From contig CALKKV010000007.1 in assembly GCA_937992195.1 (NCBI GenBank), forward strand, positions 21,581 through 85,580: DNA of 64,000 bases. Direction: 5' to 3'. The position numbers and the translations under genes were made by a program. Below, piece after piece: positions 16,154 through 56,166 of the stretch. Position 1 is the stretch's first letter. Each line of letters begins with the position of its first letter. The stretch is from an uncultured Gammaproteobacteria bacterium (GTDB taxonomy: Bacteria; Pseudomonadota; Gammaproteobacteria; Arenicellales; Poriferihabitantaceae). Below the pieces are notes generated by a model. The model was not told the origin of the DNA, did no database searches, and was given only the letters and a program-made list of their open reading frames with translations.

Positions 16154-16170
16154 TTGTATACAATATACAA
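16154..16170. promoter_or_regulatory. palindromic operator TTGTATACAATATACAA in front of the GntR-ThDP enzyme-frc operon
   Basis: 7-bp inverted arms TTGTATA/TATACAA with a 3-bp spacer. TTGTATACAA is itself a perfect 10-bp palindrome. The 15-mer GTATACAATATACAA (16156-16170) recurs exactly at 27862-27876. The site lies 47 bp upstream of the likely ATG of the GntR gene. Confidence 0.6.
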
Positions 16171-16216
16171 GCCACTGGAGCTGTTGAAATTCTTTTATGG
16201 ATGCGAACAAATAAGA

Positions 16217-16918: not shown

Positions 16919-16951
16919 AAACACACTGAAAACACAAATTGGACAGAACTA

Positions 16952-18688: not shown

Positions 18689-18810
18689 CGTACAGAAGTT
18701 CGTAAAGAACGGACCCGGTAACGAGATTGAGGCCGAGTCCTTCATGCAATGTGATTCCTGATTTGGAATACACACAACAGATTAACTAATTCCCATTTTG
18801 GAACGAGATT

Positions 18811-20055: not shown

Positions 20056-20066
20056 GAGAATATAAA

Positions 20067-20978: not shown

Positions 20979-21108
20979 TAGAGAGTTCGACACAGTTACT
21001 TTGAAGATTCAAGGCAACTGCGAGAAAACGAAATGATGTTGAGGGCGTAAGATAAGTTGATGCCCTCTACATGATACTTAACTGCTGGAACTAAAAAGAG
21101 AAATACCA

Positions 21109-22776
21109 ATGAGTGATATTGAGATCGCACGAAAGGCGACGATTAAACCTATCGGTGAAATTGCCAAGCGATTGGATATTCCAAACGAAGCGTTAGCACC
21201 ATTTGGACATACCAAAGCAAAAGTAAACCTTGAGTATATTGATACCTTAAAGGATAAGCCTGATGGCAAGCTGATTCTGGTCACAGCGATTACACCAACG
21301 CCCGCTGGCGAAGGTAAAACCACGACTTCAGTTGGATTAACCGATGGCCTAAATAAAATTGGCAAAGATGCGATGGTTTGCCTACGTGAACCTTCTCTAG
21401 GACCGTGTTTCGGAATGAAAGGTGGTGCCGCCGGTGGTGGTCATGCTCAGGTAATTCCTATGGAGGATATCAACCTTCACTTTACCGGAGACTTTCACGC
21501 AATCACATCTGCGCATAGTTTATTGTCTGCGCTAATCGACAATCATATATATTGGGGTAATGAGGCAGGAATTGATACTCGTCGTGTTGCCTGGAGAAGG
21601 GTGGTCGACATGAATGACCGCTCACTTCGTCAAATCACCAGCTCCCTTGGTGGTGTATCAAATGGTTTCGCTAGAGAAGATGGTTTCGATATCACAGTAG
21701 CTTCGGAAGTAATGGCTATTTTTTGTCTGTCTAAGGATCTCGAAGATCTGCAGCAGCGGCTGAGTAAAATTGTGATCGGATATACCCGTGATAGAAAACC
21801 AATTACTGCTGATGCGGTTTCTGCGCCGGGACCAATGACCGTGTTGTTAAAAGATGCACTTGCTCCGAATCTGGTGCAAACATTGGAACACAATCCTGCG
21901 TTTATTCATGGTGGACCGTTTGCCAATATAGCCCACGGCTGTAACTCTGTGATCGCAACGAAAACTGCGTTGAAGATGGCGGATTATGTGGTGACTGAAG
22001 CCGGTTTCGGCGCTGATTTGGGTGCGGAAAAATTTCTTGATATCAAGTGTCGGAGCGCTGGTTTAGCGCCTGATGCTGTTGTGATCGTTGCCACGGTGCG
22101 TGCCTTGAAAATGCATGGCGGTGTGGGCAAAGACGATTTAGGAAACGAAAACGTTCAAGCGGTGAAAGACGGTTGCGTAAATCTACAAAGACATGTTGAA
22201 AATGTAAAGTCATTTGGGGTGCCTGTGGTCGTTGCAATCAACCGCTTTAGCGCTGACACCGACGCTGAAATGGCCGCGGTTAGAGAAGTTGCTGACGGCC
22301 TTGGCGTTAAGGCAATTGACGCAACCCATTGGGCAGATGGTGGTAATGGCACAACCGAGCTTGCCGAGCATGTTGCTGGTTTGGCTGACAGTGGCGAAGG
22401 TGACTTTTCGCATCTCTATCCATCGGAAATGCCGCTTTGGGAAAAGATTGAAACCATTGCAACCAAGATATATCGCGCAGACGGTATTGCGGCGGATCAG
22501 AAAACAAAAAATCAGATCAAAGATTTGCAGGATGGTGGCTTTGGTAATCTGCCTGTTTGTATTGCCAAGACGCAATATAGTTTTTCTGATGACCCAAGCA
22601 AAAAAGGTGCACCTACGGGACATACTTTACCGGTTCGAGAAGTCAGATTGTCAGCGGGAGCGGGTTTTATTGTTGCCGTGTGCGGCGACATTATGACAAT
22701 GCCTGGTTTACCTCGGGTGCCTGCAGCAAACAGTATTCGTATGAACGATGCTGGACAAGTTGAAGGGTTGTTCTAA
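21109..22776 (+). CDS. fhs: formate-tetrahydrofolate ligase (10-formyl-THF synthetase)
   Basis: 555 aa. [16 protein letters not shown]-loop, [34 protein letters not shown]. Confidence 0.96.
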
Positions 22777-30329: not shown

Positions 30330-32027
30330 ATGGGCATCGTTTCCAATATCGCACAAAAGCGTGGTCACCCCGGTAGTGGGCGGAAAAAAACACGGGGGCA
30401 GCCAAAAGGACGTCAAGTTAACCCTCAGGCGCTCGAGCAAATGTCAGCATTGATCGGCACGCCAACCAGACGCGATCTGTTGATCGAATATCTACATCAA
30501 ATTCAGGATAAATTCGGACATCTTTCGTCAGATAATCTGACTGCTCTGGCAACCCACATGAAGCTGGCGTTGACCGAAGTTTACGAAGTGGCAACTTTTT
30601 ACGCCCACTTCGATGTCGTGCGAGATGAAGAGGTTCCTCCTCCAGCGGTAACAATTCGCGTTTGTGACAGCATTTCCTGTCAGCTGGCGGGTGCGGAACA
30701 ATTGATCACTGAGCTTGAAGCTGATGCAGGTAAGGATATCCGGGTTGTGCGCGCTCCCTGCATGGGGCGGTGTGATTTGGCACCAGTGGCTGAAGTGGGC
30801 CATAACCATGTTGAGCAGGTTACTGCTGAGAAAGCGCTTGCTGTGGCTAAGGCCGGTGATCTACATCCAACTATTCCCGATTACAAAAACTTGGAAGCTT
30901 ACGTGGCCGATGGCGGCTATGGCCTGCTTAAAGAATGTCTGGCTGGAAAAAGAACCCCCGAAGAAATTATCGAAGTACTGAATAATTCGTCACTTCAAGG
31001 TCTCGGAGGAGCGGGTTTTCCAACCGGTCGGAAATGGAGCATTGTGCGTGGATTTGATGGTCCTAGACTGATGGCGGTGAACGGCGATGAAGGTGAGCCC
31101 GGCACGTTTAAAGATCGGTTTTATATGGAGTCTGATCCACATCGATTTATTGAAGGAATGTTGATTGCAGCTTGGGTAGTTGGTATTGAAACTAGCTATG
31201 TATATATGCGTGACGAGTATCCAGCGGTTATTAAAATTCTCAAAACTGAGATTGATAAGGTGCAGGCTGCGGGCTTGGCCGACCATCTGAACATTGAGAT
31301 TCGACGTGGTGCCGGCGCCTATATCTGCGGTGAAGAATCTTCCATGATTGAGTCCATTGAAGGTAAGCGTGGTTTGCCGCGTAATAGACCGCCGTATGTA
31401 GCTGAAGTCGGTATATTTGGTAAGCCGACGTTGGTGAATAACCTGGAGACTTTGTTTTGGGTGCGAGATATCGTTGAAAAAGGCGCCGACTGGTTTGCAA
31501 ATTCTGGTTCCAACGGCCGCAAAGGTCTGCGCTCTTATTCGGTTTCAGGCAGAGTCAATAAGCCGGGTATGATCCTCGCTCCAGCGGGAACCACGGTCAA
31601 TGAACTAATAGAGAAGTACTGCGGCGGCATGGTTGGTGGTCATAGCTTTAAAGGCTATCTCCCGGGTGGTGCTTCCGGTGGAATTCTGCCGGCTCGGTTG
31701 GGTGACGTTCCGCTGGACTTTGGCACTTTGCAGGAGCACGGCTGTTTTATCGGTTCTGCAGCAGTGGTTATATTCAGCGATCAGGACAATATGAAAGACG
31801 TTGCGCTGAATCTAATGCGATTCTTCGAGGATGAAAGCTGCGGTCAATGTACGCCATGTCGCGTCGGAACGGAAAAAGCGGTGAAACTGATGGTGAAACC
31901 GGATTGGGATACCGGCTTGTTGACGGAACTCAGTCAGGTAATGACAGACGCATCGATTTGCGGTCTGGGGCAGGCGGCAGGGAATCCGATAAATTGTGTT
32001 CTGAAGTATTTTCCGGAGGATCTGTAA
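30330..32027 (+). CDS. NAD-dependent formate dehydrogenase diaphorase subunit (fused NuoE-like 2Fe-2S plus NuoF-like FMN/NAD/4Fe-4S modules)
   Basis: 565 aa. The NuoE-like part carries C..SC...C.GRC cysteines. The NuoF-like part has GLGGAGFPTGRKW, GDEGEPGTFKDR, YICGEESSMIESIEG and ESCGQCTPCR. The basic N-terminal extension is RGHPGSGRKKTRGQPKGRQ. The stop abuts the ATG of the catalytic subunit. Confidence 0.85.
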   Translation: MGIVSNIAQKRGHPGSGRKKTRGQPKGRQVNPQALEQMSALIGTPTRRDLLIEYLHQIQDKFGHLSSDNLTALATHMKLALTEVYEVATFYAHFDVVRDEEVPPPAVTIRVCDSISCQLAGAEQLITELEADAGKDIRVVRAPCMGRCDLAPVAEVGHNHVEQVTAEKALAVAKAGDLHPTIPDYKNLEAYVADGGYGLLKECLAGKRTPEEIIEVLNNSSLQGLGGAGFPTGRKWSIVRGFDGPRLMAVNGDEGEPGTFKDRFYMESDPHRFIEGMLIAAWVVGIETSYVYMRDEYPAVIKILKTEIDKVQAAGLADHLNIEIRRGAGAYICGEESSMIESIEGKRGLPRNRPPYVAEVGIFGKPTLVNNLETLFWVRDIVEKGADWFANSGSNGRKGLRSYSVSGRVNKPGMILAPAGTTVNELIEKYCGGMVGGHSFKGYLPGGASGGILPARLGDVPLDFGTLQEHGCFIGSAAVVIFSDQDNMKDVALNLMRFFEDESCGQCTPCRVGTEKAVKLMVKPDWDTGLLTELSQVMTDASICGLGQAAGNPINCVLKYFPEDL

Positions 32028-34772
32028 ATGAGCGACATGATTAAATTTACGCTTAATGGTAGCGAAGTCGAGGCAGCTCCAGGTCAAACCATTTGGCAGG
32101 TTGCCAAAGAGCATGAGGTGGAAATTCCCCATCTTTGTTACGCGCCAAAACCAGATTATCGTCCCGACGGTAACTGCAGAGCATGTATGGTGGAAATCGA
32201 AGGAGAGCGAGTTTTAGCCGCATCCTGTTTGCGCACTCCAACCGAAGGCATGAAAGTCACTACCGATAATCATCGGGCAAAGACAGCGCAAAAGATGGTG
32301 ATGGAGCTGCTAGTAGCAGATCAGCCGAAACGCGAAGTCGCTCATGAAAAGACATCGACACTTTGGCATTGGTCCGATCATCTTGAGGTAGACAGTAGCC
32401 GCTTTGAACCGCGGGTTGCTCACGCCAGCGATACCAGCCATCCTGCGATGCATGTTGCGCTGGATGCATGTATCCAATGTAACCTTTGTGTCCGTGCCTG
32501 CCGTGAGGTTCAGGTAAACGATGTGATTGGTATGGCCCATCGAGGTGCCGAAGCAAAAATCGTATTCGATTTTGATGATGCCATGGGAGCAAGTACGTGT
32601 GTCGCCTGTGGTGAATGCGTCCAGGCTTGTCCAACCGGCGCTTTGATGGAAGCAACGCGGGTTGATGAGAAGGGCGTGGACCGTGGTTTGGAAACAGAAA
32701 AAACCAATAGCGTTTGCCCATATTGCGGCGTTGGATGCCAGCTGACTTATGAAACCAAAGATAATTTGATCGTATCGGTGCAAGGAAGGGAAGGGCCAGC
32801 GAATAAAAACCGGCTTTGCGTTAAAGGCCGATTTGGATTTGACTATGTTAAGCATCCGCATCGTTTGACCAAGCCGTTAATTCGTCTTGAAAATGTTGAT
32901 AAGAAGGGTGATATAGACCTTGATCCCTCCAATCCGTTTACCCACTTTCGTGAAGCAACTTGGGAAGAGGCTTTGGATTTTGCTGGTGGAGGACTCAAGG
33001 AAATTCGTGATACCAAAGGCAGTTCAGCGTTGGCTGGATTTGGTTCAGCCAAGTGCTCTAACGAAGAAGCCTATATGTTCCAGAAACTGGTTCGGACCGG
33101 CTTTGGCACCAACAACGTCGATCACTGTACGCGACTTTGTCATGCGTCATCGGTAGCTGCTCTATTGGAAGGCGTCGGATCTGGTGCGGTATCTGCGCCA
33201 TTTAACGCGGTGAAAGACGCTGATTGCGTTATTGTAATTGGTGCTAACCCAGTCGAAAACCATCCTGTCGCCGCAACATTTTTTAAGCAGGCGGCTAAAG
33301 ACGGAACCTTGATTGTGATGGATCCGCGGGGTACTGCCCTGAAACGGCACGCAACCCATATGTTGCAATTTAAGCCTGGTGCTGATGTATCAATGCTCAA
33401 TGCGATCTTAAATGTGATTGTTACCGAGAACCTGGTTGATCAAGATTATGTTGCCAAGCATACAGAAGGCTATGAGAACCTGAAGTCGCATATCGCAGAA
33501 TTTACACCGGAAGCAATGGCGCCAATTTGTGGGATTGATGCAGATACACTGCGCACCGTCGCCCGCACCTTTGCGACATCCAAAGCCTCGATTATTTTTT
33601 GGGGAATGGGTGTTTCTCAGCATATTCACGGTACCGACAATGCAAGATGTTTAATCGCTCTTTCATTGATTACCGGACAGGTAGGCAGACCGGGAACCGG
33701 CTTGCATCCTCTTCGAGGGCAAAACAATGTGCAGGGTGCATCGGACGCCGGTTTGATTCCAATGATGCTGCCAGACTATCGTTTAGTGGATGTTGATAAT
33801 CTACGATCTAATTTTGAAGATGCATGGGGCACCAAGCTGGACCCAAATCGCGGTTTAACGGTGGTTGAGATCATGCATGCAATTCATGATGATGAAATCA
33901 GCGGTATGTATATCATGGGAGAAAATCCCGCGATGTCTGATCCGGATGTGCAGCACGCACGAGACGCTCTGGCTAAGCTGGAACATTTGGTGGTTCAGGA
34001 TTTGTTTCTAACCGAAACTGCTTTTTATGCTGACGTAATTTTGCCGGCATCTGCATGGCCTGAGAAAGATGGCACGGTGACCAATACCAATCGTCAGGTG
34101 CAGATGGGGAGAGCCGCTTTGGATTTACCCGGTGATGCAAGACAGGACTGGTGGATCACTCAGGAGCTCGCTCGAAGGTTGGATCTTGATTGGCATTACA
34201 ATCATCCTTCCGATGTGTTTGCCGAGATGAGCACTGTAATGCCCTCGCTGAATAATATTACCTGGGAGCGTTTGCAGCAAGAGAGCGCCGTTACCTATCC
34301 CTGTGACGCCATTGATCAGCCGGGTAATGATATTGTCTTTACTGATGGGTTTCCGACCGCTAGTAAAAAGGCCAAACTGGTTCCTGCGAAACTGATATCC
34401 CCTGATGAAGTACCAGACGATGAATATCCCTTGATACTCACGACAGGGCGTCAGCTAGAGCACTGGCACACTGGATCAATGACGCGTCGAAGCGATGTGC
34501 TGGATCAAATAGAGCCTGAGGCTGTTGCTGCGATATCTCCTGTAGCACTGCACAAATTGAATATTGCCGCCGGAGACAAAGTGAGAATATCAACGCGCAG
34601 AGGGGTGATTGAGTTAAAAGCCCGCGCCGATGGTGCGGTCCCTGAAGGCGTGGTGTTCATTCCGTTTTGCTATGCAGAAGCTGCAGCAAATACACTGACT
34701 AACTCGGCGTTGGATCCGGTTGGGAAAATACCGGAATTCAAGTTTTGTGCGGCGAAACTCGAAGCGGTTTAA
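32028..34772 (+). CDS. formate dehydrogenase catalytic (alpha) subunit, molybdopterin type, Cys variant
   Basis: 914 aa. It has an N-terminal 2Fe-2S (CRACMVEIEG), two 4Fe-4S ferredoxin motifs (CIQCNLCVRAC, CVACGECVQACP) and the MopB 4Fe-4S motif CPYCGVGCQL. The active-site region is DHCTRLCHASS with Cys at 33138-33140, not UGA. Confidence 0.92.
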   Translation: MSDMIKFTLNGSEVEAAPGQTIWQVAKEHEVEIPHLCYAPKPDYRPDGNCRACMVEIEGERVLAASCLRTPTEGMKVTTDNHRAKTAQKMVMELLVADQPKREVAHEKTSTLWHWSDHLEVDSSRFEPRVAHASDTSHPAMHVALDACIQCNLCVRACREVQVNDVIGMAHRGAEAKIVFDFDDAMGASTCVACGECVQACPTGALMEATRVDEKGVDRGLETEKTNSVCPYCGVGCQLTYETKDNLIVSVQGREGPANKNRLCVKGRFGFDYVKHPHRLTKPLIRLENVDKKGDIDLDPSNPFTHFREATWEEALDFAGGGLKEIRDTKGSSALAGFGSAKCSNEEAYMFQKLVRTGFGTNNVDHCTRLCHASSVAALLEGVGSGAVSAPFNAVKDADCVIVIGANPVENHPVAATFFKQAAKDGTLIVMDPRGTALKRHATHMLQFKPGADVSMLNAILNVIVTENLVDQDYVAKHTEGYENLKSHIAEFTPEAMAPICGIDADTLRTVARTFATSKASIIFWGMGVSQHIHGTDNARCLIALSLITGQVGRPGTGLHPLRGQNNVQGASDAGLIPMMLPDYRLVDVDNLRSNFEDAWGTKLDPNRGLTVVEIMHAIHDDEISGMYIMGENPAMSDPDVQHARDALAKLEHLVVQDLFLTETAFYADVILPASAWPEKDGTVTNTNRQVQMGRAALDLPGDARQDWWITQELARRLDLDWHYNHPSDVFAEMSTVMPSLNNITWERLQQESAVTYPCDAIDQPGNDIVFTDGFPTASKKAKLVPAKLISPDEVPDDEYPLILTTGRQLEHWHTGSMTRRSDVLDQIEPEAVAAISPVALHKLNIAAGDKVRISTRRGVIELKARADGAVPEGVVFIPFCYAEAAANTLTNSALDPVGKIPEFKFCAAKLEAV

Positions 34773-44114: not shown

Positions 44115-45266
44115 TTAGTAGCTGTCCCACTGCACGCGGACACCGTCTGCTCCCGTATTGAGATATAAAATCCCTAAAGCGCCGAGTAAAACAACCCCGG
44201 TGATAACGGCTAAACCTATTTTTATCGCACTCCATGGCCGATCTCCCTGTACCTCACCGGTTCGGCCATTGACGATAAACTGGAATGTTCTGTCTCTGAA
44301 TCGAAATCCGGCAATCCAGAATGGCAACAGAATGTGCTTGAATGTAATGTCACTGTAGCGTGTGTCGGCTTGATGGATACGTTGCTGGTCCCCGCCAATA
44401 TTGCGTCGAATGTCCTGACGAATAACTGGATGCATTCTTTGTTTGGCGAAGTCAAACCCCTGATCGAGCTCAACCTTATACACCTCGCTTTGAAACCCGG
44501 TGAGAAATTCTTCCTGATAGGGTTTTAACTCCCCAAGGTCCCAGGGAGCAAGTTCCTTGGCCATTGATCTTGGAAGGGAGTTCGTTCCGTAAATCAAGAC
44601 ATCATTAAAATCCCTTCTTACGTGACCGCTGACTGGCGACCATCGAATCTTGCTTACCATGCGCGTTTGGGTCTGCATCTTGCCGTTCACTCTGACCCGG
44701 ACCCGCTGTCGTACCTGATAAATATCACCGCGTTCACCCCGATATCGGGTTTCGGTTGCGCTATCGTATGTCCAGTAGGGAACATAGACACCATTTAGCT
44801 TACGGTCCGTGCGCGCAAACTTTTTGAGCTTGTTCGGCGCAAACCATAGCCGAGTCAGCCACTTTCGATACGAGTCGCCGGCCTGTTTCGCATTGATCCG
44901 AAATGGCAGCAGTGATTTCGGTTGAATCAGACGATGTTCGTGACTGTCGACGATAATCTTAGTGCTGCAAAAAGGGCATTCGTCGGCATGCAAGTTCTTG
45001 TCGAATTCAAATTCCGCAGCGCATGCTTGGCATTTGACCGTGTATTGAACAGAATTTGGCGCAGCCCCGGGCAACTGTTTTAATGTCGAGTGGAAATCGT
45101 ACTCCTCGATCGGTACGCGAGATAGCTGAATCTGATGCAGATGATCACAATGGGTGCACTGCAACGAGTCGCTGCCCTCCAAGTACTGAAGTTGGGCACC
45201 ACACTGTTCACAGGGAAAAGTATGCTGCCGCGATGCGAGAAATTCAGTGGTGCTTGGGTTTTGCAA
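44115..45266 (-). CDS. double zinc-ribbon protein with a C-terminal TM anchor (unknown function)
   Basis: 383 aa. It has two CxxC-x(n)-CxxC ribbons (CEQCGAQLQY..LQCTHCDH; CQACAAEFEF..ECPFCS), a large beta-rich middle region and a C-terminal TM helix, IGLAVITGVVLLGALGILYL. Only a TTG start is available and there is no clear SD, so the start is uncertain. Confidence 0.6.
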   Translation of the reverse strand: MQNPSTTEFLASRQHTFPCEQCGAQLQYLEGSDSLQCTHCDHLHQIQLSRVPIEEYDFHSTLKQLPGAAPNSVQYTVKCQACAAEFEFDKNLHADECPFCSTKIIVDSHEHRLIQPKSLLPFRINAKQAGDSYRKWLTRLWFAPNKLKKFARTDRKLNGVYVPYWTYDSATETRYRGERGDIYQVRQRVRVRVNGKMQTQTRMVSKIRWSPVSGHVRRDFNDVLIYGTNSLPRSMAKELAPWDLGELKPYQEEFLTGFQSEVYKVELDQGFDFAKQRMHPVIRQDIRRNIGGDQQRIHQADTRYSDITFKHILLPFWIAGFRFRDRTFQFIVNGRTGEVQGDRPWSAIKIGLAVITGVVLLGALGILYLNTGADGVRVQWDSY

Positions 45267-45350
45267 AACCGGTTTACTGCTAAATTCTTAATTTAAAAGA
45301 CAATGAAAACCACTTGTTCAAAGGTTTTAAGACATTGCTCAATGATACGA

Positions 45351-46448
45351 TTAAACAGGAATATCTGGCGGTATGTGCTTGAGTACCTCTGTAACTTCTT
45401 TAACTTCCGAAGCAATTGTCCACTCCGTCATACCGTTTCTCCAAACCAGCGAATCCCGCTGAAGTGAGCCGTTCTCAGCTTGTTCCTTCAGCTCTTCTAA
45501 CTCATACGGTCCCGCGCGCTTACCGTCTACAACGATATAATACATTGCCTCTTCGGGTACCGGCGGTGGACCACTTTGATTGGTATTTTCTGGAGGTGCA
45601 TTCAGAGTCGCACCGAGCTTATTTGCCATCGCAAAACCCATACCCATCGCAATTGCTTCTCCACCACCACCCGGATTGTCGGCCGCACGGGTTAGCGCAT
45701 CCGCAGCTTGATAGTCAGTGTATTTCTTCAGGTCGCCGATTACACCCATAGAGGTGCGCTTGTCGAGGGCTTTCTCAACTTCTGGAGGAAGAGAAATATT
45801 CTCGACCAAGAGAGTAGTGAGCGATAAGCCATAGTCGGCAAATTCGGGGTTAATTTTGTCTTGAAGGAAATTGCCCAAATCGTCGTAGTTAGCAGCAAGG
45901 TCAAGCACTGGAATACCAGCAGACGCTGTAATCTCAGCGAAGCGAGAGACCACTAAGTTACGCAGCTGATCAGTGATTTCGTCAGTGGTAAAGTAATCAT
46001 CAGTTCCGGCCACTTCTTTGAGAAATTTTGCCGGATCTTCAACCCGAATCGCATAGGTTCCAAAACCACGTAAGCGGACAGCGCCAAACTCTTCATCCCG
46101 CATCATGATGGGGTTTTTGGTGCCCCATTTCAAATCAATAAACTGCTTGGTTGATAAGAAATAAACTTCGGCCTTGAATGGACTCTTAAAGCCGTGAGGC
46201 CAAGACTGAAGCGTAGTTAGAATCGGAAGATTCGCTGTTTCCAGCTGGTATAGACCGGGAGAAAATACGTCAGCGATCTGTCCTTCGTTTACAAACACAG
46301 CAACCTGCGACTCTCTTACGGTTAACATCGCACCGTATTTAATTTCATTTCCCTGCCGTTCAAATCGCTTTACCATCAGATCTTCGTCGTCGCTCATCCA
46401 TTCGATGACGTCGATAAACTGGCCGGTAATGATGTCCCATAGTCCCAT
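45351..46448 (-). CDS. SPFH/Band-7 superfamily protein of the YdjI type with a C-terminal GYF_2 domain
   Basis: 365 aa. The N-terminal FIDVIEW...VKRF...GAMLTVRESQVAVFVNEG and the WGTK block resemble my recollection of B. subtilis YdjI. A Gly/Met-rich linker (GGGGEAIAMGMGFAMAN) follows. The C-terminal YYIVVDGKRAGPYELEELKEQAENGSLQRDSLVWRNGMTEW fits the GYF_2 pattern. Confidence 0.75.
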   Translation of the reverse strand: MGLWDIITGQFIDVIEWMSDDEDLMVKRFERQGNEIKYGAMLTVRESQVAVFVNEGQIADVFSPGLYQLETANLPILTTLQSWPHGFKSPFKAEVYFLSTKQFIDLKWGTKNPIMMRDEEFGAVRLRGFGTYAIRVEDPAKFLKEVAGTDDYFTTDEITDQLRNLVVSRFAEITASAGIPVLDLAANYDDLGNFLQDKINPEFADYGLSLTTLLVENISLPPEVEKALDKRTSMGVIGDLKKYTDYQAADALTRAADNPGGGGEAIAMGMGFAMANKLGATLNAPPENTNQSGPPPVPEEAMYYIVVDGKRAGPYELEELKEQAENGSLQRDSLVWRNGMTEWTIASEVKEVTEVLKHIPPDIPV

Positions 46449-46449
46449 G

Positions 46450-47607
46450 CTATACCTCCGCGGTGGCTGCAGGGGCGTCAGCGCGCGCGCTAGCTGCCGT
46501 TAACGCAGATCGAAGCTCTCGCTCACATTTTTCAAGTTCAACTACCGCTTCCGCACGCTGTTTTTTTCCTTTGTCGGCGATTTCGAGGCTTTCATTGATC
46601 GTCTCGATCAATTTCGCATTAGCGACTTTGACAGATTCGAGATCAAACACTCCACGTTCAATTTGCTCCCGGACTTCGCGATTCGCCTGTTGCAGGTTTT
46701 CAGCATTCTTTTCCAGCAGTTCATTGGTCAGGTCGGTAGCCGCTTTTACCGTGCTCGCAGCTTGTTGTGAGCGATAGATCGTTACCGCCTGCGCCAGCTG
46801 TTGCCGCCATAGCGGAACGGTGTTGGCTATTGTCGATTGAATCTTGCGAATTAAACCTTTATCGTTTTCCTGGACAAGTCGAATCGACGGCAGGGCTTGC
46901 ATAGTGACCGTGCGGGTCAGGCGTAAATCATGCACCCGCCTTTCCAAATCGTCTCTAGCAGTGCGAATATCTCTGAGCTCTTGGGCCTTCAATACATCGT
47001 CGCTTTGTTCGGTAACTGACACCATTTCAGGTATCACTACTTTATCTAGCTGTTCCAGCTTTTCATCGCCAGCGTGTATATAGTTTTCGAGATCACCAAA
47101 GTAGTCCAGACTCGCATCGTATAGTCGATCCAGTGAAGCGATATCGGTTAACAGCGTGGTCTTGTGTCCTTCTAGTTTGTCGGTCACCGTATCAAGTTGC
47201 TTTCGTATTTCTTCATATTCTTGTAGAAACTTGACTACAGGCTTAGCACCACGGAACAAGCGAGCAAACCAGCTAGGATTAACCGCGAGATCTTCAGCGC
47301 CAAATCCTCTCAGCGTGGCCACCATGTCATTGAGAGAGTCTGAGGCAGGGCCGATATCTTTATTTCGGACTCCCTCAAGCATGTTGTCGGAGACAGTGGT
47401 TAATTGTTGCTGTGCTTTTGTACCAAAGAAGATAATTGAGTTACTGTCGTCCATATCGATTTCGGCCATCATACGATCTATGTCGACTTTGTCGGCTTCG
47501 GTAAGAGCGACCTTGTCTTTAATTTGTTCTTCAACAACTGGAAGCATCTTTTCGGTGACTGCTGCCACTTCGCTGTCTGCGACTAAGGTTTGAGTTTCTT
47601 CGTTCAT
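46450..47607 (-). CDS. TelA-like toxic anion resistance family protein
   Basis: All-helical and coiled-coil rich. IIFFGTKAQQQLTTVSDNMLEGVRNKDIGPASDSLNDMV resembles the conserved TelA/YaaN N-terminal block. The start is taken at ATG 47607, preceded by GGAGAAAAT. The track ORF begins 13 codons earlier. The stop is 1 bp from the next gene's start. Confidence 0.75.
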   Translation of the reverse strand: MNEETQTLVADSEVAAVTEKMLPVVEEQIKDKVALTEADKVDIDRMMAEIDMDDSNSIIFFGTKAQQQLTTVSDNMLEGVRNKDIGPASDSLNDMVATLRGFGAEDLAVNPSWFARLFRGAKPVVKFLQEYEEIRKQLDTVTDKLEGHKTTLLTDIASLDRLYDASLDYFGDLENYIHAGDEKLEQLDKVVIPEMVSVTEQSDDVLKAQELRDIRTARDDLERRVHDLRLTRTVTMQALPSIRLVQENDKGLIRKIQSTIANTVPLWRQQLAQAVTIYRSQQAASTVKAATDLTNELLEKNAENLQQANREVREQIERGVFDLESVKVANAKLIETINESLEIADKGKKQRAEAVVELEKCERELRSALTAASARADAPAATAEV

Positions 47608-47694
47608 ATTTTCTCCGTTGCGTGTTCCCGGTGAACAATTTTTCAATTGCTTGGGTATTAATTTATTTTCTATGTATAACTATTAAATTTTGAT

Positions 47695-48534
47695 TTAGAT
47701 GATTCCCTCATGCTTCAGCTGCGCCTCAAGTACTTCGATTTTGACATCTAAATCCAGGGCGTCATTTTCTAGAAGTTTTCCGTGCTGTTCCTCGATAACT
47801 GATTCGATACTTTCTAAGACATTGCGAAAATTTTGTTCTAGAGTTTCATTATCTTGAAGCTGATGCGTTCTCGCATATTGACTGGACACATTTTTGGCCC
47901 CGGTTAGATACACCTTTAAAAACTTGCGGGCGCGTCGCAAATCTTTTGGATCATCTTCAATAATTGAGAGAATGCTGCGAGTCTTACTGACGATTCGTCC
48001 GAGCCTTATTTTGAGTTCATTGTTACCAATCTGTTTGGAGGAGGCTTCAATTTGAACAAGATGTGCTTCAGCCTCATCTAGCGCCTCAACCACTTCTTCT
48101 GTGGTCACGCCAAATCGGGAAACATCTTGATTGCTATCGTACTGCGGGTCGAAGCCATAGCGCAGCGCGACCCCTGCAAAGCCCATGCCCGCTGAAATTA
48201 CCCCAACAAGAAAGGGTAGTCCCGCTAACATCTTGGTGATAATAAACGCCGCCGTAGCGACAAACACCGCTGCGGAAAAACGCCAGGGAACACGAGTTGC
48301 ACGAGCCCACTTACGCTTACCAGCTATCCATTCGTATTTTGCGCCTTGGCGTAGAAACCATGCAGCAAGCCAGGTTAATCCCAATGCTGCTCCGCTATAT
48401 ATCAGTTTGCTGATATTGCCTGAGAGCAGAGAGGCGATAGCCACTAGCAGCAGCGGAAGCGGCAAGAAATACAGCAGCAGTGGACCGATGCCTGGTCCTT
48501 CCTTTTTGTTTAGTTGACGATAAGGTGTTGGCAT
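47695..48534 (-). CDS. XpaC-like (5-bromo-4-chloroindolyl phosphate hydrolysis protein family) membrane protein
   Basis: 279 aa. The N-terminal half has 4 TM helices. The C-terminal half is a helical domain with RRARKFLKVYLTGAKNVSSQY, resembling the XpaC family block. It is paired with a TelA-like gene, as xpaC-yaaN is in Bacillus. Confidence 0.65.
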   Translation of the reverse strand: MPTPYRQLNKKEGPGIGPLLLYFLPLPLLLVAIASLLSGNISKLIYSGAALGLTWLAAWFLRQGAKYEWIAGKRKWARATRVPWRFSAAVFVATAAFIITKMLAGLPFLVGVISAGMGFAGVALRYGFDPQYDSNQDVSRFGVTTEEVVEALDEAEAHLVQIEASSKQIGNNELKIRLGRIVSKTRSILSIIEDDPKDLRRARKFLKVYLTGAKNVSSQYARTHQLQDNETLEQNFRNVLESIESVIEEQHGKLLENDALDLDVKIEVLEAQLKHEGII

Positions 48535-48611
48535 AGGCGCGCTAGTTTCCTCGGGAAATTCAATGAACCTGAGAAGGGCAGTTGTGAGATGAGTAACATG
48601 GATACAATTGT

Positions 48612-48749
48612 CTACAGTGCGTTGACAGCAAGAGAGATCGCCGCTTTACAGCTTGTGAGATGAATACAGATAAATAGCAGTAAAGTGCCAAGAAGCTTTC
48701 GCCATCCACCCAAAATCGGCTTTGGATTGTCTTTGACCAAAGTGTTCAT
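48612..48749 (-). CDS. possible 45-aa small membrane or lipoprotein-like ORF (below the ORF-track cutoff)
   Basis: My own translation is MNTLVKDNPKPILGGWRKLLGTLLLFICIHLTSCKAAISLAVNAL. GGAG lies 3 nt before the ATG, followed by a hydrophobic stretch and a lipobox-like LTSC. It sits between the YdjM-like gene and the XpaC-like gene. Confidence 0.3.
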   Translation of the reverse strand: MNTLVKDNPKPILGGWRKLLGTLLLFICIHLTSCKAAISLAVNAL

Positions 48750-48771
48750 TTTCTCCATAAATCGTTGTTTT

Positions 48772-49860
48772 TCATGATTTTACCGCATTATTACTGAATT
48801 TGGTTGGGTCTTGGTCGACATTCCGCTCGCTTTCCAGTGACGCTAAGTCACGACCGAGCAAACGCTGGCCAAGCCAGCCAAAGAACTTGATTATTTCAAT
48901 CTTCATTGGCGCCTCGTTGGGGATAGAAGCTACAGGGAAACCTTTCCCTTCGGTGATACCCTTCTTTGCCTTGGGATAGTGGCCAAATTCAAACTGAAAA
49001 AAGTAATAGGGTTCTCCCCCCATACGTAAATCTTGTCCCAATATTCTGTCTCCATCCTCTGAAAAAGCGTGAAAATTGTGATTAAACCTCGCAAATTGAT
49101 CTAGCGCTTTCTTGTCCCGAATGTCGGCGACATATTCGATCCCTCTATTGTAAGTTGAGAAATTGATACCTTCGTCAGGCTTCAGATAACTAAAATATCC
49201 TTCGTGAAAATATTGATCATCTATCGCTATCACTCTCCACAATATCGAGTTAAATGGGGTTGGTGTTGCCACTAACGCCTGAGGGCTTATTTTTGCTTTT
49301 GCTAAGGTGTTTATCGCTAATTCTTCAATATTGTTCTTTGCATACAGACCCCAGCAAAGATAGAGACTGCTAATGACGAGTCCCGCTAAAGAAACGGTTA
49401 AAACATGCTGTTGTAATGGTCTGCGCCAAATCCAGATCGCCGCCATGAGCAGTGGCAAAGAAAAAAGCGGGTCGATGATAAAAGTACTGCCGCCCATTAT
49501 TGGTTCTGTACCAAAAGGCCAAAATAGCCACGTTCCGTATATCGTTAACGCATCAAGGCCGCTATGGGTTACAAAAATTAAAAAGCATGTCAGAAAACGA
49601 TTCAAGAAACCCCAGCTTCTATCAATGTATCCGAGTAAAAATGCAAAAACCGGAGCAATTATTAAGTGCATGAGCCACGAGTGTGACCAGCTACGATGTT
49701 TGGTCATTGCATCCAAATCATTTTCGAATGGAACCAATACATCTAGATCAGGGAGTGTTCCTAACAGTGCGCCGATTACAATTGCACGGCGAGGCTGTCT
49801 GCCTCTAGTTGCGACCAAGGCAACTGCACTCCCCAGCATCGCCTGACTAAGGCTATCCAT
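48772..49860 (-). CDS. membrane-bound metal-dependent hydrolase, YdjM/YbcI (DUF457) family, with a C-terminal extracytoplasmic domain
   Basis: 362 aa. MDSLSQAMLGSAV, LLGTLPDLDVL, HRSWSHSW and THSGLDALT are His/Asp-rich blocks typical of DUF457. Confidence 0.7.
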   Translation of the reverse strand: MDSLSQAMLGSAVALVATRGRQPRRAIVIGALLGTLPDLDVLVPFENDLDAMTKHRSWSHSWLMHLIIAPVFAFLLGYIDRSWGFLNRFLTCFLIFVTHSGLDALTIYGTWLFWPFGTEPIMGGSTFIIDPLFSLPLLMAAIWIWRRPLQQHVLTVSLAGLVISSLYLCWGLYAKNNIEELAINTLAKAKISPQALVATPTPFNSILWRVIAIDDQYFHEGYFSYLKPDEGINFSTYNRGIEYVADIRDKKALDQFARFNHNFHAFSEDGDRILGQDLRMGGEPYYFFQFEFGHYPKAKKGITEGKGFPVASIPNEAPMKIEIIKFFGWLGQRLLGRDLASLESERNVDQDPTKFSNNAVKS

Positions 49861-52624: not shown

Positions 52625-52714
52625 GGAGAGGTGTCTGAGTGGTCGAAAGAGCACGCCTGGAAAGTGTGTGTACGTTCACGCGTACCGAGGGTTCGAATCC
52701 CTCTCTCTCCGCCA
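52625..52714 (+). tRNA. tRNA-Ser (anticodon GGA), CCA encoded
   Basis: GGAGAGG acceptor pairs with TCTCTCC. T arm is GAGGG-TTCGAAT-CCCTC. Anticodon stem-loop is CACGC-CTGGAAA-GTGTG, giving anticodon GGA. It has a long class II variable arm and ends GCCA. Confidence 0.93.
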
Positions 52715-52895
52715 ATTCCATTAAGAAATATAAAGAAATTGTTATTTGTTGATGCCGGATAGCTTTGCATTGCGCATCACGGTATTTCTCCAATGCGCAC
52801 TAAAGGTGTAGGTGTTCAGCAACAGTTCAGGAGGGGTTCATTATCCGGTAGTAAGGTGATTTCCTGCTCAAATTCGCTTTCGACAAAGCATTATT

Positions 52896-53282
52896 ATGAT
52901 TAAGAAATTTCTGATAACAGGTTTTTTATCTGCGTTACTAACCTTTGGCAGCTTCACTCCGGCTATGGCGGGAGGAAAGTATAGGACTACCCTTAGTCTT
53001 GGGTATTTGGTTGGATCATTGTTCCACTATGGTCATCACCATAGATCTTATCGCCGTTCCTATCATCGTGGTTATCGTCATCAAGGTTACGGTTATCGTG
53101 GCGGCTATCATGGGTATAGCGGAGGCCGTTCTTATCATCGCCCACAGCGCCACTATGGAAATCGATCTTACTCCCATTCGGGTCGAAAGTATTACCACGG
53201 TTATCGAGGCGGGCATTCATACGGTGGCAAACGTTATGGTAACAGAGGTTATCGTCATCGCGCCGCTCGATACCATCATTAA
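52896..53282 (+). CDS. secreted Gly/Tyr/His/Arg-rich low-complexity protein
   Basis: 128 aa. The signal peptide is MIKKFLITGFLSALLTFGSFTPAMA. The mature part consists almost entirely of G, Y, H, R and S in short irregular repeats (HRGYRHQGYGYRGGYHGYSGGRSYHRPQRHYGNRSY...). This is the only one of four overlapping open frames that has a signal peptide. Confidence 0.6.
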   Translation: MIKKFLITGFLSALLTFGSFTPAMAGGKYRTTLSLGYLVGSLFHYGHHHRSYRRSYHRGYRHQGYGYRGGYHGYSGGRSYHRPQRHYGNRSYSHSGRKYYHGYRGGHSYGGKRYGNRGYRHRAARYHH

Positions 53283-53312
53283 GCGATTGGATTTAATGAT
53301 TCACTAGAAAGT

Positions 53313-53339
53313 TGGTTTTCAGGGTTTTCAGGGTTTTCA
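53313..53339. repeat. 3 x 9-bp tandem repeat (T/G)GGTTTTCA
   Basis: Read directly: tggttttca gggttttca gggttttca. Confidence 0.8.
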
Positions 53340-53364
53340 TCTATTGTCTATCATTTCTATTTTT

Positions 53365-53396
53365 GCTTTGATATATGCAAGAGCGTATATCAAAGC
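53365..53396. repeat. 11-bp perfect inverted repeat GCTTTGATATA / TATATCAAAGC with a 10-nt spacer
   Basis: Read directly. It lies in the non-coding-looking stretch of the tRNA-Ser islet. Confidence 0.8.
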
Positions 53397-54099
53397 AGAT
53401 GTTAATAACCCGATGACCAGGCCACATAAAACAGAATTGATCGCCAGTAAAACCAATATCGATTGCTTTCCCTTCTCCACTTTTAGCATTCAGTACGCAA
53501 GCGGGGCGATTGCCAGAATAAAACGTCGCTTATAACAGCTCGGTTAAGCCCCCAGGCAGCTCCATATGTCTGTAACTTCTGGATTATTGACTTTTTATGA
53601 CCTTTTGACTGAGAACAAAGGGGAATGCGAATGTCGCTGTCCGTAAGCCTATCCACACTTTTCCTCAGTGCGATGGGTGTTCCAATATTTCGGATATATA
53701 AGTATCCAATCAGCGGTTGATCAGGATGCAGGAGAGCGTTATACCGAGCAACACAATTTTTACAGCGTCTCCATAATAGATTATCCAGCAGAGCCCTTGT
53801 GAGTAGCTATTCCTGTGGGGTGACCTTGCATCGACGGAGAGGCTGATAGCCAAGATTTCGCTCAAGAAAATCGCAATAATTACAAATAGTTGGCGTAATC
53901 TAGGTACTTCTATTTGAATAACCGATTCATTTATAAAGAGAGAAGGGAATTATGATGCCTGAATGCTGTTTACAAGCGTCAATGAGCAAGAAGATTCAGA
54001 TTCTATTTAAGGGAAATACAGGTTTATGCTAAAATGACCCGCAAACGCTAGGTATAACTTACAAGAAGCCAAAAAAATTAGGCTCGGAGAGAAGATAGA

Positions 54100-55338
54100 G
54101 TGGGAAAATCCGTTCGAAGTAAAAGTGAAGGAATCTTAGGGGCGATCAAAACGGTCACGAATAAACCCGCTAATGCTGGTGGAGAGGTAAGATCGTCAAC
54201 CGGACCGCTTCCCAATGTACCAAAATTTCAGAAACTCGTTGGGTCGACCGGTGAGTCGACTTCATCTGCCGTTACGAGATCACAGGCGACAGATAGTTCG
54301 TCGGTTACTGGACCGGCTAAGACAAAAGCAAGTACTGTTTCCTCCGGTCGAGTTCAGGCTTCAAAAGAAGTTACTTCTGGAAGAGACGTCAAATCTCGCG
54401 AAAATGATTTACCTCCCCGGTATCAAAACCCTATTGAAGAAAATAACGCAAAGATTGAAGCGCGAAAGAAAAATATTGCTGCACTAACCAAAAAAATCGA
54501 AGCCAGAACCAAAAATATTGAGGCGAAAGCGAAAAAACCTGAACCTCAATCTAAACCTCAATCTGAACCCCAAACTGCTAAGTTAAACAAACCAAACGCA
54601 GCTGAATCGGACGATCAAGAAAATTCAGCAAGATTGGCCGCAGAACCTTCGTCACTTGTCTCGGGTAACGATGCGTTAGTCATGCTTGATTCGATTGATT
54701 TAGAGGCGAAGGCAAGAAACTTCATAACTGACAAAATAGGTCAGCAAGTATCTGATAATTTAGCGGATGTCGACCTGGTAGATATTTGTCAGCCGAATCT
54801 ATCGGTGGTCGGTCCAGCATTTAATGCTTTGAAGTACTCTTATCATCAACCTCAAATCGTAAAGTTGTATGGAAACTTAATTTCAACTGCTATGAGCGCT
54901 AAAACCGCACGCTTCGCTCATCCGGGATTTGTCGATCTAATTAGAAATATCACGGAAGATGAGGCGAGGGTGCTTTCCTGGTTTTTTAAACAGAAAGTGC
55001 TTCCAGTGATTGATATTAAAAAAGTGATCAATAAAACTCAGAGTGAGATGCGACTTAACACTCTTGTGTCGACGATTGCGCAAGATGCCGGTTGCGAATA
55101 TGATGATTTAGCTGAGAGCTATCTGGCAAACCTAGAACGCATTGGATTGCTCGAGATTCCTCGGTCAGTTTGTCTTACGGATGACAGCTTATATATCAGG
55201 GTGTTATCTCTTCCGGCTGTCCGAGAACGTATTGATGCTTTAAATAGCTCTAGTAAGGATTATTTTGGTGAAATCGTTCGCTATTATGCCAAGCTCTCAG
55301 TCTTCGGAATTAGGTTTTGTCACGCCTGTATACGTTAG
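54100..55338 (+). CDS. DUF4393/Abi_alpha-like protein with a long disordered Ser/Thr/Lys-rich N-terminal extension
   Basis: 412 aa with a GTG start 8 nt after GGAGAG. Residues 1-190 are low complexity, with the repeat KIEARKKNIAALTKKIEARTKNIEAKAKK. In the C-terminal 200 aa, VGPAFNALKYSYHQPQIVKLYGNLISTAMSAKTARFAHPGFVDLIRNITEDEARVLSWF and LANLERIGLLEIP fit my recollection of the Abi_alpha (PF14337) profile: ...L.elyanLLa.a.d......HPaFveii.qLtpdEAkiL ... nL.rLGLi. Confidence 0.6.
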   Translation: MGKSVRSKSEGILGAIKTVTNKPANAGGEVRSSTGPLPNVPKFQKLVGSTGESTSSAVTRSQATDSSSVTGPAKTKASTVSSGRVQASKEVTSGRDVKSRENDLPPRYQNPIEENNAKIEARKKNIAALTKKIEARTKNIEAKAKKPEPQSKPQSEPQTAKLNKPNAAESDDQENSARLAAEPSSLVSGNDALVMLDSIDLEAKARNFITDKIGQQVSDNLADVDLVDICQPNLSVVGPAFNALKYSYHQPQIVKLYGNLISTAMSAKTARFAHPGFVDLIRNITEDEARVLSWFFKQKVLPVIDIKKVINKTQSEMRLNTLVSTIAQDAGCEYDDLAESYLANLERIGLLEIPRSVCLTDDSLYIRVLSLPAVRERIDALNSSSKDYFGEIVRYYAKLSVFGIRFCHACIR

Positions 55339-55938
55339 CCTGTAAGAACCCATAGCCTGCCTCAAGGGGTTTGAAGCAGCGAAAATTAAAAAAAGAACAC
55401 CTGCTGGTTCGGAAAAAAGAATTAGTTTGTCAAAATTCGATCCGCTCTGCACAGCGCCTTGAAAATGATGAATTGCTGAGGCTCGATAGGCTATGTATAT
55501 CAATATCAATGTCAAGCCGAGCAATCCCAATCGTATCGTACTCCCACACTTGTTCGCCAATGAGCTAAACACTAGATATGTGTAACCAGCACTAGCTGTA
55601 ACAAGTAGAAAAAAGCTTATAGCGCCAGTTCGACTCGCATTTTCTACCAGACTGTTTCCGCTTTTCTCCTGTAAGAGCTCGATAAGTAGCGTTTGAAAAT
55701 CTAATTGCTTGTTTAATCCCATGGCTAGCGTAAATATCCCGCAAGCGAGCCAAAATAATCGAGAATCGAGTTGAATCGACAAGTATGAGTTTCCAATCAC
55801 TATTTCGATTTCTTTCTCACAGAAAAATATCCTAGTGCACATTGCACTGGATACTATGTACCCGATGGTGACCAGCCACGCCCCGAACGTTGGATCACCA
55901 ACTTGAAACATCCATCCTACATCAGTCTGTATATTCAT
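55297..55938 (-). CDS. hypothetical polytopic membrane protein (5-6 TM)
   Basis: 213 aa, hydrophobic, no family recognised. Its 3' end overlaps the convergent Abi_alpha-like gene by 42 bp (55297-55338). Confidence 0.5.
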   Translation of the reverse strand: MNIQTDVGWMFQVGDPTFGAWLVTIGYIVSSAMCTRIFFCEKEIEIVIGNSYLSIQLDSRLFWLACGIFTLAMGLNKQLDFQTLLIELLQEKSGNSLVENASRTGAISFFLLVTASAGYTYLVFSSLANKCGSTIRLGLLGLTLILIYIAYRASAIHHFQGAVQSGSNFDKLILFSEPAGVLFLIFAASNPLRQAMGSYRLTYTGVTKPNSED

Positions 55939-56166
55939 TGATTTGTTCTAAAACTAAGGATACGAGCTCTCAGTTAAGTAAATTGGTTTAATACGGTGTA
56001 CAGGCAGGGAGATGACAAACGATGTTCTTTGAGTGTATGTGACAAACCAAGTTTATGTAACTTAAGTTTCGTAGTCAGGTTAATTTAAGTAAGGTTTTAT
56101 AGAGATTCGAATATGGTGCTTTATACTCACTATTTTTAATTCAGGCGTTGATGGGTAAATACTTCG

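Follow-up and report, generated by a model that had tools for sequence, protein, structure and literature searches.

A short open reading frame (ORF) of an uncultured gammaproteobacterium raised the question of whether DNA so biased in composition that several overlapping frames stay open encodes a protein, in which of these frames, and with what function. The ORF (52896..53282, + strand; ATG start, 128 aa) lies in the window, by which we mean the whole 64,000-nucleotide stretch of DNA analysed here. The presence of four overlapping open frames, a feature of the original prediction, was confirmed: alongside the 128-aa frame, a +1 frame of 120 aa and, on the minus strand, two ORFs of 75 and 66 aa are open. 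Codon shuffling of the repeat region was found to yield equally long open alternative frames, so the four-frame openness is a trivial by-product of codon composition. Only a weak 15-bp period was detected inside the gene by Tandem Repeats Finder, which argues against a clean DNA repeat. When all six frames of the window and 35 loci were scanned for segments of at least 60% GYHR per 40 aa with at least 5 Tyr, only the window ORF and its orthologs passed; the composition is not the product of a chance ORF. The features of the locus are listed in Table 1.

Table 1. Features of the G/Y/H/R-rich protein gene and its surroundings in the window.
Feature	Position	Strand	Basis or remark
tRNA-Ser(GGA)	52625..52714	+	ARAGORN, Rfam tRNA; context only, marks the locus
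Three direct hexamers GTTCAG-N5-GTTCAG-N5-GTTCAT, 11-bp period; putative response-regulator site	52814..52841	+	Match to the P. aeruginosa PhoP box
Predicted -10 hexamer TAAGGT, 10 nt downstream of the last repeat	52852..52857	+	Conserved position in six loci
Sec-type signal peptide, residues 1-25; predicted cleavage AMA/GG	52896..52970	+	n, h, and c regions; -3/-1 Ala/Val-Ala pattern
Conserved N-terminal motif of the mature protein, residues 26-49, GGKYRTTLSLGYLVGSLFHYGHHH	52971..53042	+	Best-conserved block of the family
G/Y/H/R(/S/N) low-complexity region, predicted disordered, residues 50-128	53043..53279	+	Composition, Tyr context, AF2
Stop codon TAA	53280..53282	+	
Palindrome with 15-bp stem, 82 nt past the stop codon	53364..53397		Inverted repeat; RNA fold z = -4.1

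The frame that begins with the signal peptide (frame A) was compared with the overlapping +1 frame between the window and its closest ortholog, located on contig L024. The two frame-A proteins were 67% identical, with a pS of 0.72 and a pN of 0.185; synonymous sites were essentially saturated, and pN was 0.19-0.20 in the low-complexity region. Differences were distributed 37/14/66 over the three codon positions, and every indel was a multiple of three. Within the repeat region, frame A displayed a pN/pS of 0.24 and 68% amino-acid identity, while the +1 frame displayed a pN/pS of 1.01 and 36% identity. Frame A was also the frame in which synonymous codon choice fit the genome best. The original prediction had allowed that another frame might be conserved in place of the signal-peptide frame, and the reverse was found. 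Substitution counts between the two orthologs show purifying selection acting on the signal-peptide frame, and the ORF is almost certainly a real and conserved protein-coding gene.

Public annotation points the other way. A contig of the same strain (L018; ENA ERZ6864208), which differs from the window at one position over 1101 compared bases, is annotated with a 102-aa Ile/Val/Thr-rich protein in the +1 frame (P0033, present in the public collection) and not with the G/Y/H/R-rich protein. Of the six loci that carry the gene, three were annotated in a wrong frame, namely the window's own strain (L018), L026 (where the product is P0034), and L027. If the gene callers were correct, this Ile/Val/Thr-rich hypothetical protein would be the true product, or nothing would be encoded here at all, and the overall codon log-odds score is indeed higher for the +1 frame, as Ile, Val, Ala, and Thr are common residues. 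Such a reading is already contradicted by the substitution pattern; the +1 frame has no conserved start or signal, and its openness is reproduced by shuffling the codons of frame A. We regard it as barely conceivable.

Orthologs were reached by walking from a neighbouring gene for a Sel1-repeat protein to syntenic contigs. The gene was found in six loci (the window, L024, L025, L026, L027, and L029), always downstream of tRNA-Ser(GGA), with a locus order of tRNA-Ser(GGA), gene, and sbcB; the tRNA was positioned 130-195 nt upstream of the gene in L024, L025, L026, and L029. In L026 and L027, the gene stands directly between the tRNA and sbcB, an arrangement that looks ancestral. The neighbouring Sel1 proteins were 79% (L024), 68% (L025), and 52-53% (L026, L027, and L029) identical to that of the window; the gene was not found at this position in loci with a Sel1 identity of 48% or less, nor in L035 at 55%. 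All five of the other loci belong to one small clade of uncultured gammaproteobacteria. L025, whose contig ends 31 codons into the gene, is part of a metagenome-assembled genome (MAG) labelled Acidiferrobacterales; an Acidiferrobacterales MAG is the nearest labelled relative. A search of GTDB with the Sel1 query revealed no syntenic locus. Among Rfam families, only the tRNA was found. The gene is a single-gene unit. The palindrome past its stop codon has no U-tract and thus is not a canonical intrinsic terminator; it may mark a transcript 3' end or act as a stabiliser, though its link to the gene is uncertain. Elsewhere, the window was found to carry oxalate/formate and housekeeping genes, with no genes of sulfur oxidation.

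Export of the protein was among the claims of the original prediction and is well supported by the family. The signal peptide, MIKKFLITGFLSALLTFGSFTPAMA, was judged by inspection against the usual Sec pattern (a positively charged n-region, an h-region spanning 10-15 residues, and small amino acids at -3 and -1); the window protein has the features of a Sec/SPase I substrate, with KK at residues 3-4 of the n-region, a hydrophobic core (maximum Kyte-Doolittle value of 2.3 over 11 residues), and Ala at both -3 and -1. Residues 2-19 were modelled as a helix by AF2. The AXA motif is common to all six loci, and the n, h, and c regions together with this cleavage motif are kept in seven family sequences, which end their signal peptides in P-A/V-x-A followed by G-G/N/K (S-R in L026). 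The window protein has no lipobox Cys, and no Cys at all, which argues against a lipoprotein, and no RR in its n-region, which argues against a Tat substrate. On the strength of these sequence features, the protein is very probably exported, with its signal peptide predicted to be cleaved.

The mature chain of 103 residues is composed of 21% G, 19% Y, 17% R, 15% H, and 10% S. The earlier description of a chain made almost exclusively of these residues holds in part: G, Y, R, H, and S account for 82% of the mature protein, but its first 24 residues (GGKYRTTLSLGYLVGSLFHYGHHH), skipped in the sequence quoted at the time, are moderately hydrophobic and not of low complexity. This segment may serve as a docking or oligomerisation element. 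With 21 K+R and 0 D+E, the chain carries a charge of +21 and has a pI of 10.7. In the low-complexity region, Tyr occurs every 3-7 residues, mostly in a [G/S]-Y-[R/H/G] context. In the AF2 model (from a shallow alignment of 3 sequences), pLDDT averaged 48 and stayed below 50 over residues 57-116, which is consistent with a disordered tail. The region has the marks of an intrinsically disordered low-complexity chain, as no confident fold was obtained and composition is kept while sequence and length drift.

A similar design was found across the family. Five of the six loci extend past the signal peptide, and these share an N-terminal motif of 20-25 residues and the start of the Gly/Tyr/His/Arg-rich tail, which is complete in four. 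The motif consensus, derived from the window, L024, L026, L027, L029, and a partial ortholog (P0035), is x-Y-R-F-S-[LI]-D-L-G-Y-[LI]-x-x-S-L-F-H-Y-x-H and is followed by a conserved HHH/HHGHH cluster. The ortholog tails, of roughly 80-140 residues, are built from G, Y, H, and R together with N or S; these residues (G/Y/H/R(/N/S)) make up 70-85% of the mature protein, though the tails vary in length and align poorly. The four full-length orthologs have between 0 and 5 acidic residues each and net charges ranging from +15 to +25, and Arg accounts for 17-22% of the window protein and its closest ortholog. The tail of L027 and P0035 is a perfect (HGYGHRG)n array, which broke the assembly. More distant members carry a short C-terminal hydrophobic patch (FSISWRGY, VTLNWRF, or ISFSYGEV) that is absent from the window protein. 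The conserved N-terminal motif, a PhoP-box-like promoter, and the wrong-frame public annotation had not been part of the original prediction.

Database searches were performed with the 128-aa protein, and no match was returned by phmmer among 5.8 billion clustered proteins or among 1.84 billion cluster representatives, by exact look-ups, in the GTDB species genomes, in plasmids (tblastn), or in PDB sequences. The JGI metagenome contigs likewise provided no match to the protein alone or to a two-sequence alignment. NCBIfam had no match to the window protein, and Pfam gave only a sub-threshold match to GtrA that fell on the signal peptide; five other family members had nothing above the Pfam thresholds, the BA14K domain included. 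These negatives are weak as statements on homology, since the L024 ortholog scores an E-value of 2e-29 locally yet is absent from the protein collection, and the protein of the window's own strain is missing from it since the wrong frame was called. Thus, the protein searches found nothing partly because gene callers picked the wrong frame. We consider this a systematic annotation failure, in which callers presented with such a composition favour an overlapping Ile/Val-rich frame. Public records consequently hold a spurious protein, while the real one is missing from the protein databases.

The family profile retrieved only three further proteins: the partial ortholog P0035 and two non-orthologous secreted proteins of similar composition, P0036 ((GYRGYRGHN)n; GCA_045611705.1) and P0037 (Rhizobium azibense). 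P0036 and P0037 share with the window protein a basic Y/R/H/G low-complexity chain, about 80-100 residues long, behind a signal peptide. Unlike the window family, P0036 lacks the N-terminal motif, has Cys pairs, and is encoded in an unrelated low-GC genome behind a constitutive-looking consensus promoter (TTGACA/TATACT), with a clean terminator after the gene. A GTTCA box was also considered for P0036 and was rejected, as its promoter contains no GTTCA repeats. The basic His/Tyr/Arg/Gly tract of Brucella BA14K is a further stretch that resembles secreted proteins with Tyr/Arg/Gly/His repeats. Secreted Y/R/G/H chains seem to have arisen more than once, by convergence on a composition and not by descent within one family. 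The window protein itself belongs to a new family of exported low-complexity polycations that is restricted to one clade, bears a recognisable regulatory signature, and has no member in any curated family.

The name of the relative prompts one comparison by lineage. Sulfur oxidisers export small structural proteins rich in Gly and Tyr, the sulfur-globule proteins, via Sec, and a sulfur-globule-type envelope protein of an Acidiferrobacterales-labelled lineage would share the general design found here, a signal peptide followed by a repetitive Gly/Tyr-rich chain, in addition to the label of the nearest named relative. The extreme Arg and His content is atypical of sulfur-globule proteins, and neither a family member above any Pfam threshold nor a sulfur-oxidation gene in the window was found, which leaves this identity highly improbable.

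The regulatory signature was recognised in the region between the tRNA and the gene, which could not be aligned across the six loci save for a repeat block and a -10 element. The block takes the form GTTCAG-N5-(G/A)TTCA(G/T)-N5-GTTCA(G/T) with an exact 11-bp period in all six loci, and in each it is followed, at a distance of 10-11 nt from the third repeat, by TA[AG][GT][GA]T; a further 32-40 nt separate this hexamer from the ATG. In the window, transcription is predicted to start near 52864. The triple repeat was detected a single time in the 64-kb window, where even a search tolerating 2 mismatches would be expected to give 0.12 matches, and once per ortholog-bearing locus, always upstream of the gene, and was not detected in 29 other loci; the two-hexamer pattern was likewise found only at the gene, with 0.055 expected by chance over 463 kb of loci. 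A generic sigma-70 scan called no promoter at the gene, since there is no -35 element, and a generic promoter and terminator scan returned nothing above chance. The Shine-Dalgarno sequence was weak in the window and L024. Direct repeats placed one helical turn apart in the position of the -35 element are a hallmark of OmpR/PhoB-family class II activators, and the arrangement makes control of this promoter by a response regulator probable.

The repeats were compared with the PhoP box of Pseudomonas aeruginosa, with the consensus GTTCAGNNNNNRTTCAG (PMC3156716; PMC7916210). An exact match was found at 52814-52830, and a second, overlapping box (52825-52841) matched save for its last base (T for G). 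ChIP-seq of P. aeruginosa PhoP identified the motif G/ATTCAG and a regulon of envelope-remodelling genes that includes oprH, pagP, arn, and slyB (PMC7916210). In architecture I promoters of Salmonella, the PhoP box is in direct orientation, overlaps the -35 region, and is positioned about 12 nt upstream of the -10 element (PMC3335776), compared with 10-11 nt from the box to the predicted -10 in the window family. The Streptomyces phosphate regulator PhoP, a member of the OmpR family, likewise uses repeats with a GTTCA core at an 11-nt period (PMC2275107). Because the core is shared with other OmpR-family regulators in this way, the identity of the regulator is inferred and not established, and a PhoP-type signal behind the promoter has, by the motif match, slightly less than an even chance. 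No response-regulator gene, phoPQ included, was found among the window ORFs scanned (~64 kb). The CreBC regulon was also considered; its cre/blr tag is TTCAC-N6-TTCAC (PMC13214185), and it was ruled out as all 18 half-sites of the family were TTCAG or TTCAT and never TTCAC.

Three roles had been suggested for the protein, namely metal buffering, adhesion or matrix formation, and polyanion binding. By charge and composition, polyanion binding would fit best, given a net charge of +15 to +25 and only 0-5 acidic residues in the full-length orthologs; adhesion or matrix formation is still compatible with the data. A periplasmic buffer or chaperone for metals (Ni/Zn/Cu), in which HH, HxH, and (HGYGHRG)n elements coordinate the metal and the promoter repeats form a metal-responsive OmpR-family operator, would account for the His content (10-20% of the mature chain in all members), the conserved His cluster after the N-terminal motif, and the perfect tandem repeats of L027 and P0035. 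Yet the chain is strongly positive, and the Asp, Glu, Cys, and Met residues that might complete coordination or balance the charge are almost absent; none of the six loci has a linked gene for metal transport, efflux, or sensing; and the repeats match the PhoP consensus exactly. Metal buffering is therefore unlikely, and as the primary role it is less likely than polyanion binding. The His-rich metal binders Hpn and SmbP are comparable to the window protein in their high His content and small size but differ in charge: their His is accompanied by acidic, Cys, or Gln residues and they are not polycations, while the window protein has no Asp/Glu and 21 Arg+Lys.

The same composition could also be read as that of a self-associating structural, adhesive, or condensate-forming protein, with Tyr, His, and Arg as stickers and Gly and Ser as spacers, that undergoes pH-dependent coacervation or builds a surface matrix. 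Consistent with this reading are the contents of about 20% each for G, Y, and R and 15% for H, the [G/S]-Y-[R/H/G] pattern, the predicted disorder of the tail, and the retention of composition while sequence and length drift. The GHGLY-repeat proteins of squid beak, in which His-Tyr and Tyr-Tyr contacts give pH-dependent coacervation (PMC10766971), provide a precedent. These histidine-rich beak proteins and the window family are alike in being Gly/His/Tyr-rich, disordered, and secreted, and the HGYGHRG tandem repeats of L027 and P0035 recall the GHGLY repeats; the window protein differs in being bacterial, presumably periplasmic, and far richer in Arg, and there is no homology. Tyr/Arg sticker-spacer low-complexity domains are similarly related to it in chemistry and not by homology. 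Homotypic condensation is disfavoured by the high net positive charge in the absence of a polyanion, and the window protein would probably need such a partner to condense; beyond Sec no secretion route was found, nor were matrix or adhesin genes linked to the gene. Self-association as the main role appears a poor prospect, somewhat more so than metal buffering, though it overlaps with the explanation preferred below and does not exclude it.

The protein is also cationic, Gly-rich, and small, as would suit a secreted antimicrobial peptide or bacteriocin resembling the many Gly/His/Tyr/Arg-rich antimicrobial peptides of eukaryotes. The variable neighbours include, in L024, a gene of the CPBP/Rce1-like family, which has ties to bacteriocin immunity. 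However, neither an immunity nor an export gene is conserved, the signal peptide is an ordinary Sec type and not a double-glycine leader, and the gene is stably syntenic in a housekeeping region, standing with no other gene between tRNA-Ser and sbcB in L026 and L027. An antimicrobial function is thus quite improbable.

The best explanation overall, which we put forward tentatively as it falls short of even odds, is that of an envelope polycation under PhoP-like regulation that binds anionic envelope polymers when divalent cations are scarce. According to this proposal, the hexamers would form the operator at which a response regulator of the OmpR/PhoB family works as a class II activator, and the best-matching regulator would be a Pseudomonas-type PhoP that responds to Mg2+/Ca2+ limitation. 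On induction, the protein would be exported via Sec and its signal peptide removed. The Tyr/Arg/His polycation might then bind the anionic envelope, i.e., (i) phosphates of phospholipids or LPS, (ii) carboxylates of peptidoglycan, or (iii) exopolysaccharide or eDNA, and act as a protein counter-ion or cross-linker that replaces or supplements missing Mg2+/Ca2+ bridges. Net negative surface charge would be lowered by the chain, and with 15% His its own charge would rise further at low pH. The polyanion-binding or cation-substitute function, taken by itself, is a possibility that we hold to be doubtful. A Sec substrate reaches the periplasm only, and the proposal leaves access to the phosphates of outer-leaflet LPS unexplained.

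The closest known systems by function may be the PhoP-induced envelope stabilisers and, with a different charge, the secreted His/Tyr/Gly-rich low-complexity proteins of eukaryotes. The PhoP-activated envelope factors of P. aeruginosa (e.g., OprH) have the same direct-repeat box, GTTCAGNNNNNRTTCAG, as the promoter of the window gene, are likewise exported, and share with its product the proposed task of dealing with a shortage of divalent cations in the envelope. The proteins are unrelated in sequence and fold, OprH being a folded outer-membrane beta-barrel and the window protein a disordered chain with only a Sec signal, and PhoP control of the window gene is putative. A more far-reaching and rather unlikely version of the preferred explanation is a new envelope class, that of periplasmic disordered Tyr/Arg/His polycations that are PhoP-like-induced and condense with anionic polymers as a genetically encoded and pH-tunable substitute for Mg2+/Ca2+ bridges.

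Were such a class to exist, it would represent a periplasmic counterpart of the eukaryotic Tyr/Arg low-complexity condensate formers, and one largely invisible in databases owing to wrong-frame gene calls. Other secreted low-complexity proteins of a similar kind are probably being under-counted. The tie between an extreme, disordered, exported polycation and a specific regulatory input, here a PhoP-type box, offers a concrete hypothesis for low-complexity envelope proteins of bacteria. Surface polyamines are another route of envelope stabilisation under divalent-cation limitation. If the polyanion or condensate idea holds, the family would add to lipid A modification a protein-based means of stabilising the envelope when divalent cations are limiting.

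Public gene calls at the locus encoding the G/Y/H/R-rich protein were found to have chosen overlapping wrong frames in the window's own strain (L018) and in two syntenic contigs carrying orthologs (L026 and L027). The products of these calls are Ile/Val/Thr/Ala-rich 'hypothetical proteins', including P0033 (102 aa, the L018 call, present in NCBI and ENA) and P0034 (148 aa, from L026). For the window's strain, and for L024 (another contig with an ortholog), the protein collections lack the true G/Y/H/R product.

In L027 (~5190-5450, minus strand) and in the partial ortholog P0035, the tail of the protein is encoded by a perfect 21-bp tandem array specifying (HGYGHRG)n. A scaffold gap of Ns interrupts the array, whose repeat number may vary. 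Similar composition was also detected in two non-orthologous secreted proteins. P0036 has a signal peptide followed by a (GYRGYRGHN)n chain with two Cys pairs. A near-perfect sigma-70 promoter (TTGACA...TATACT) and a strong SD precede its gene, a clean terminator follows it, and GTTCA repeats are absent. P0036 appears to be a secreted Tyr/Arg/Gly/His protein of independent evolutionary origin. P0037 of Rhizobium azibense (105 aa) is basic and His/Arg/Trp/Tyr-rich, and it ends with ...HLYFSIDL, which is similar to the YRFSIDLGY motif, although in the G/Y/H/R gene family that motif is N-terminal rather than C-terminal.

Three small features lie directly downstream of the gene (window 53314-53489), of which the minus-strand ORF overlaps the other two; this ORF might encode a small membrane protein or a toxin, or be nothing. 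The interval between the gene and sbcB (window 53283-56166) spans ~2.9 kb; compared with L026 and L027, in which sbcB adjoins the gene directly, it appears to be inserted sequence. The genes found at this position differ in other relatives: CCP_MauG and DAHL genes in L029 and a CPBP/Rce1-like gene in L024. The site has the appearance of a variable-gene hot spot.

Locations of features at and around the G/Y/H/R locus and in related contigs
Feature	Location	Strand	Remarks
Wrong-frame public gene call	L018 6845-7153 (window 52999-53307)	+	+1 frame
Wrong-frame public gene call	L026 4883-5329		
Wrong-frame public gene call	L027 4879-5193		
P0036 gene	L036 1551-1898		GCA_045611705.1; unrelated low-GC bacterium
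9-bp tandem repeat	window 53314-53339		GGTTTTCAG x2.9
Palindrome	window 53364-53397		15-bp stem; fold z = -4.1; no U-tract
Very hydrophobic 50-aa ORF	window 53337-53489	-	MLKVEKGKQSILVLLAINSVLCGLVIGLLTSALIYALAYIKAKIEMIDNR
Abi_alpha (abortive infection) gene	window 54100-55338		inside ~2.9-kb segment
Unknown 213-aa gene	window 55297-55938	-	inside ~2.9-kb segment
Syntenic gene block	window 44115-49860		matched in L018, L022, L024-L030, L035
Oxalate/formate-type gene set	window 16154-22776, 30330-34772		

The syntenic block encodes a zinc-ribbon-like 383-aa protein, SPFH/Band7 with GYF_2, TelA, Halogen_Hydrol (XpaC-like), and YdjM; pdxH and then the Sel1-repeat gene come next. Synteny was strict among relatives with identities of the Sel1-repeat gene as low as 48%; the arrangement differs in contigs L032-L034 (44%). 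The block resembles a gene cluster for envelope or stress functions. Elsewhere in the window, the oxalate/formate-type set includes a GntR/FCD regulator, an oxalyl-CoA decarboxylase-like TPP enzyme, a family III CoA-transferase, a formyltransferase, a formate-tetrahydrofolate ligase, and, farther along, an NADH-dehydrogenase-51K/molybdopterin formate-dehydrogenase-like pair, which together hint at the metabolism of the organism.
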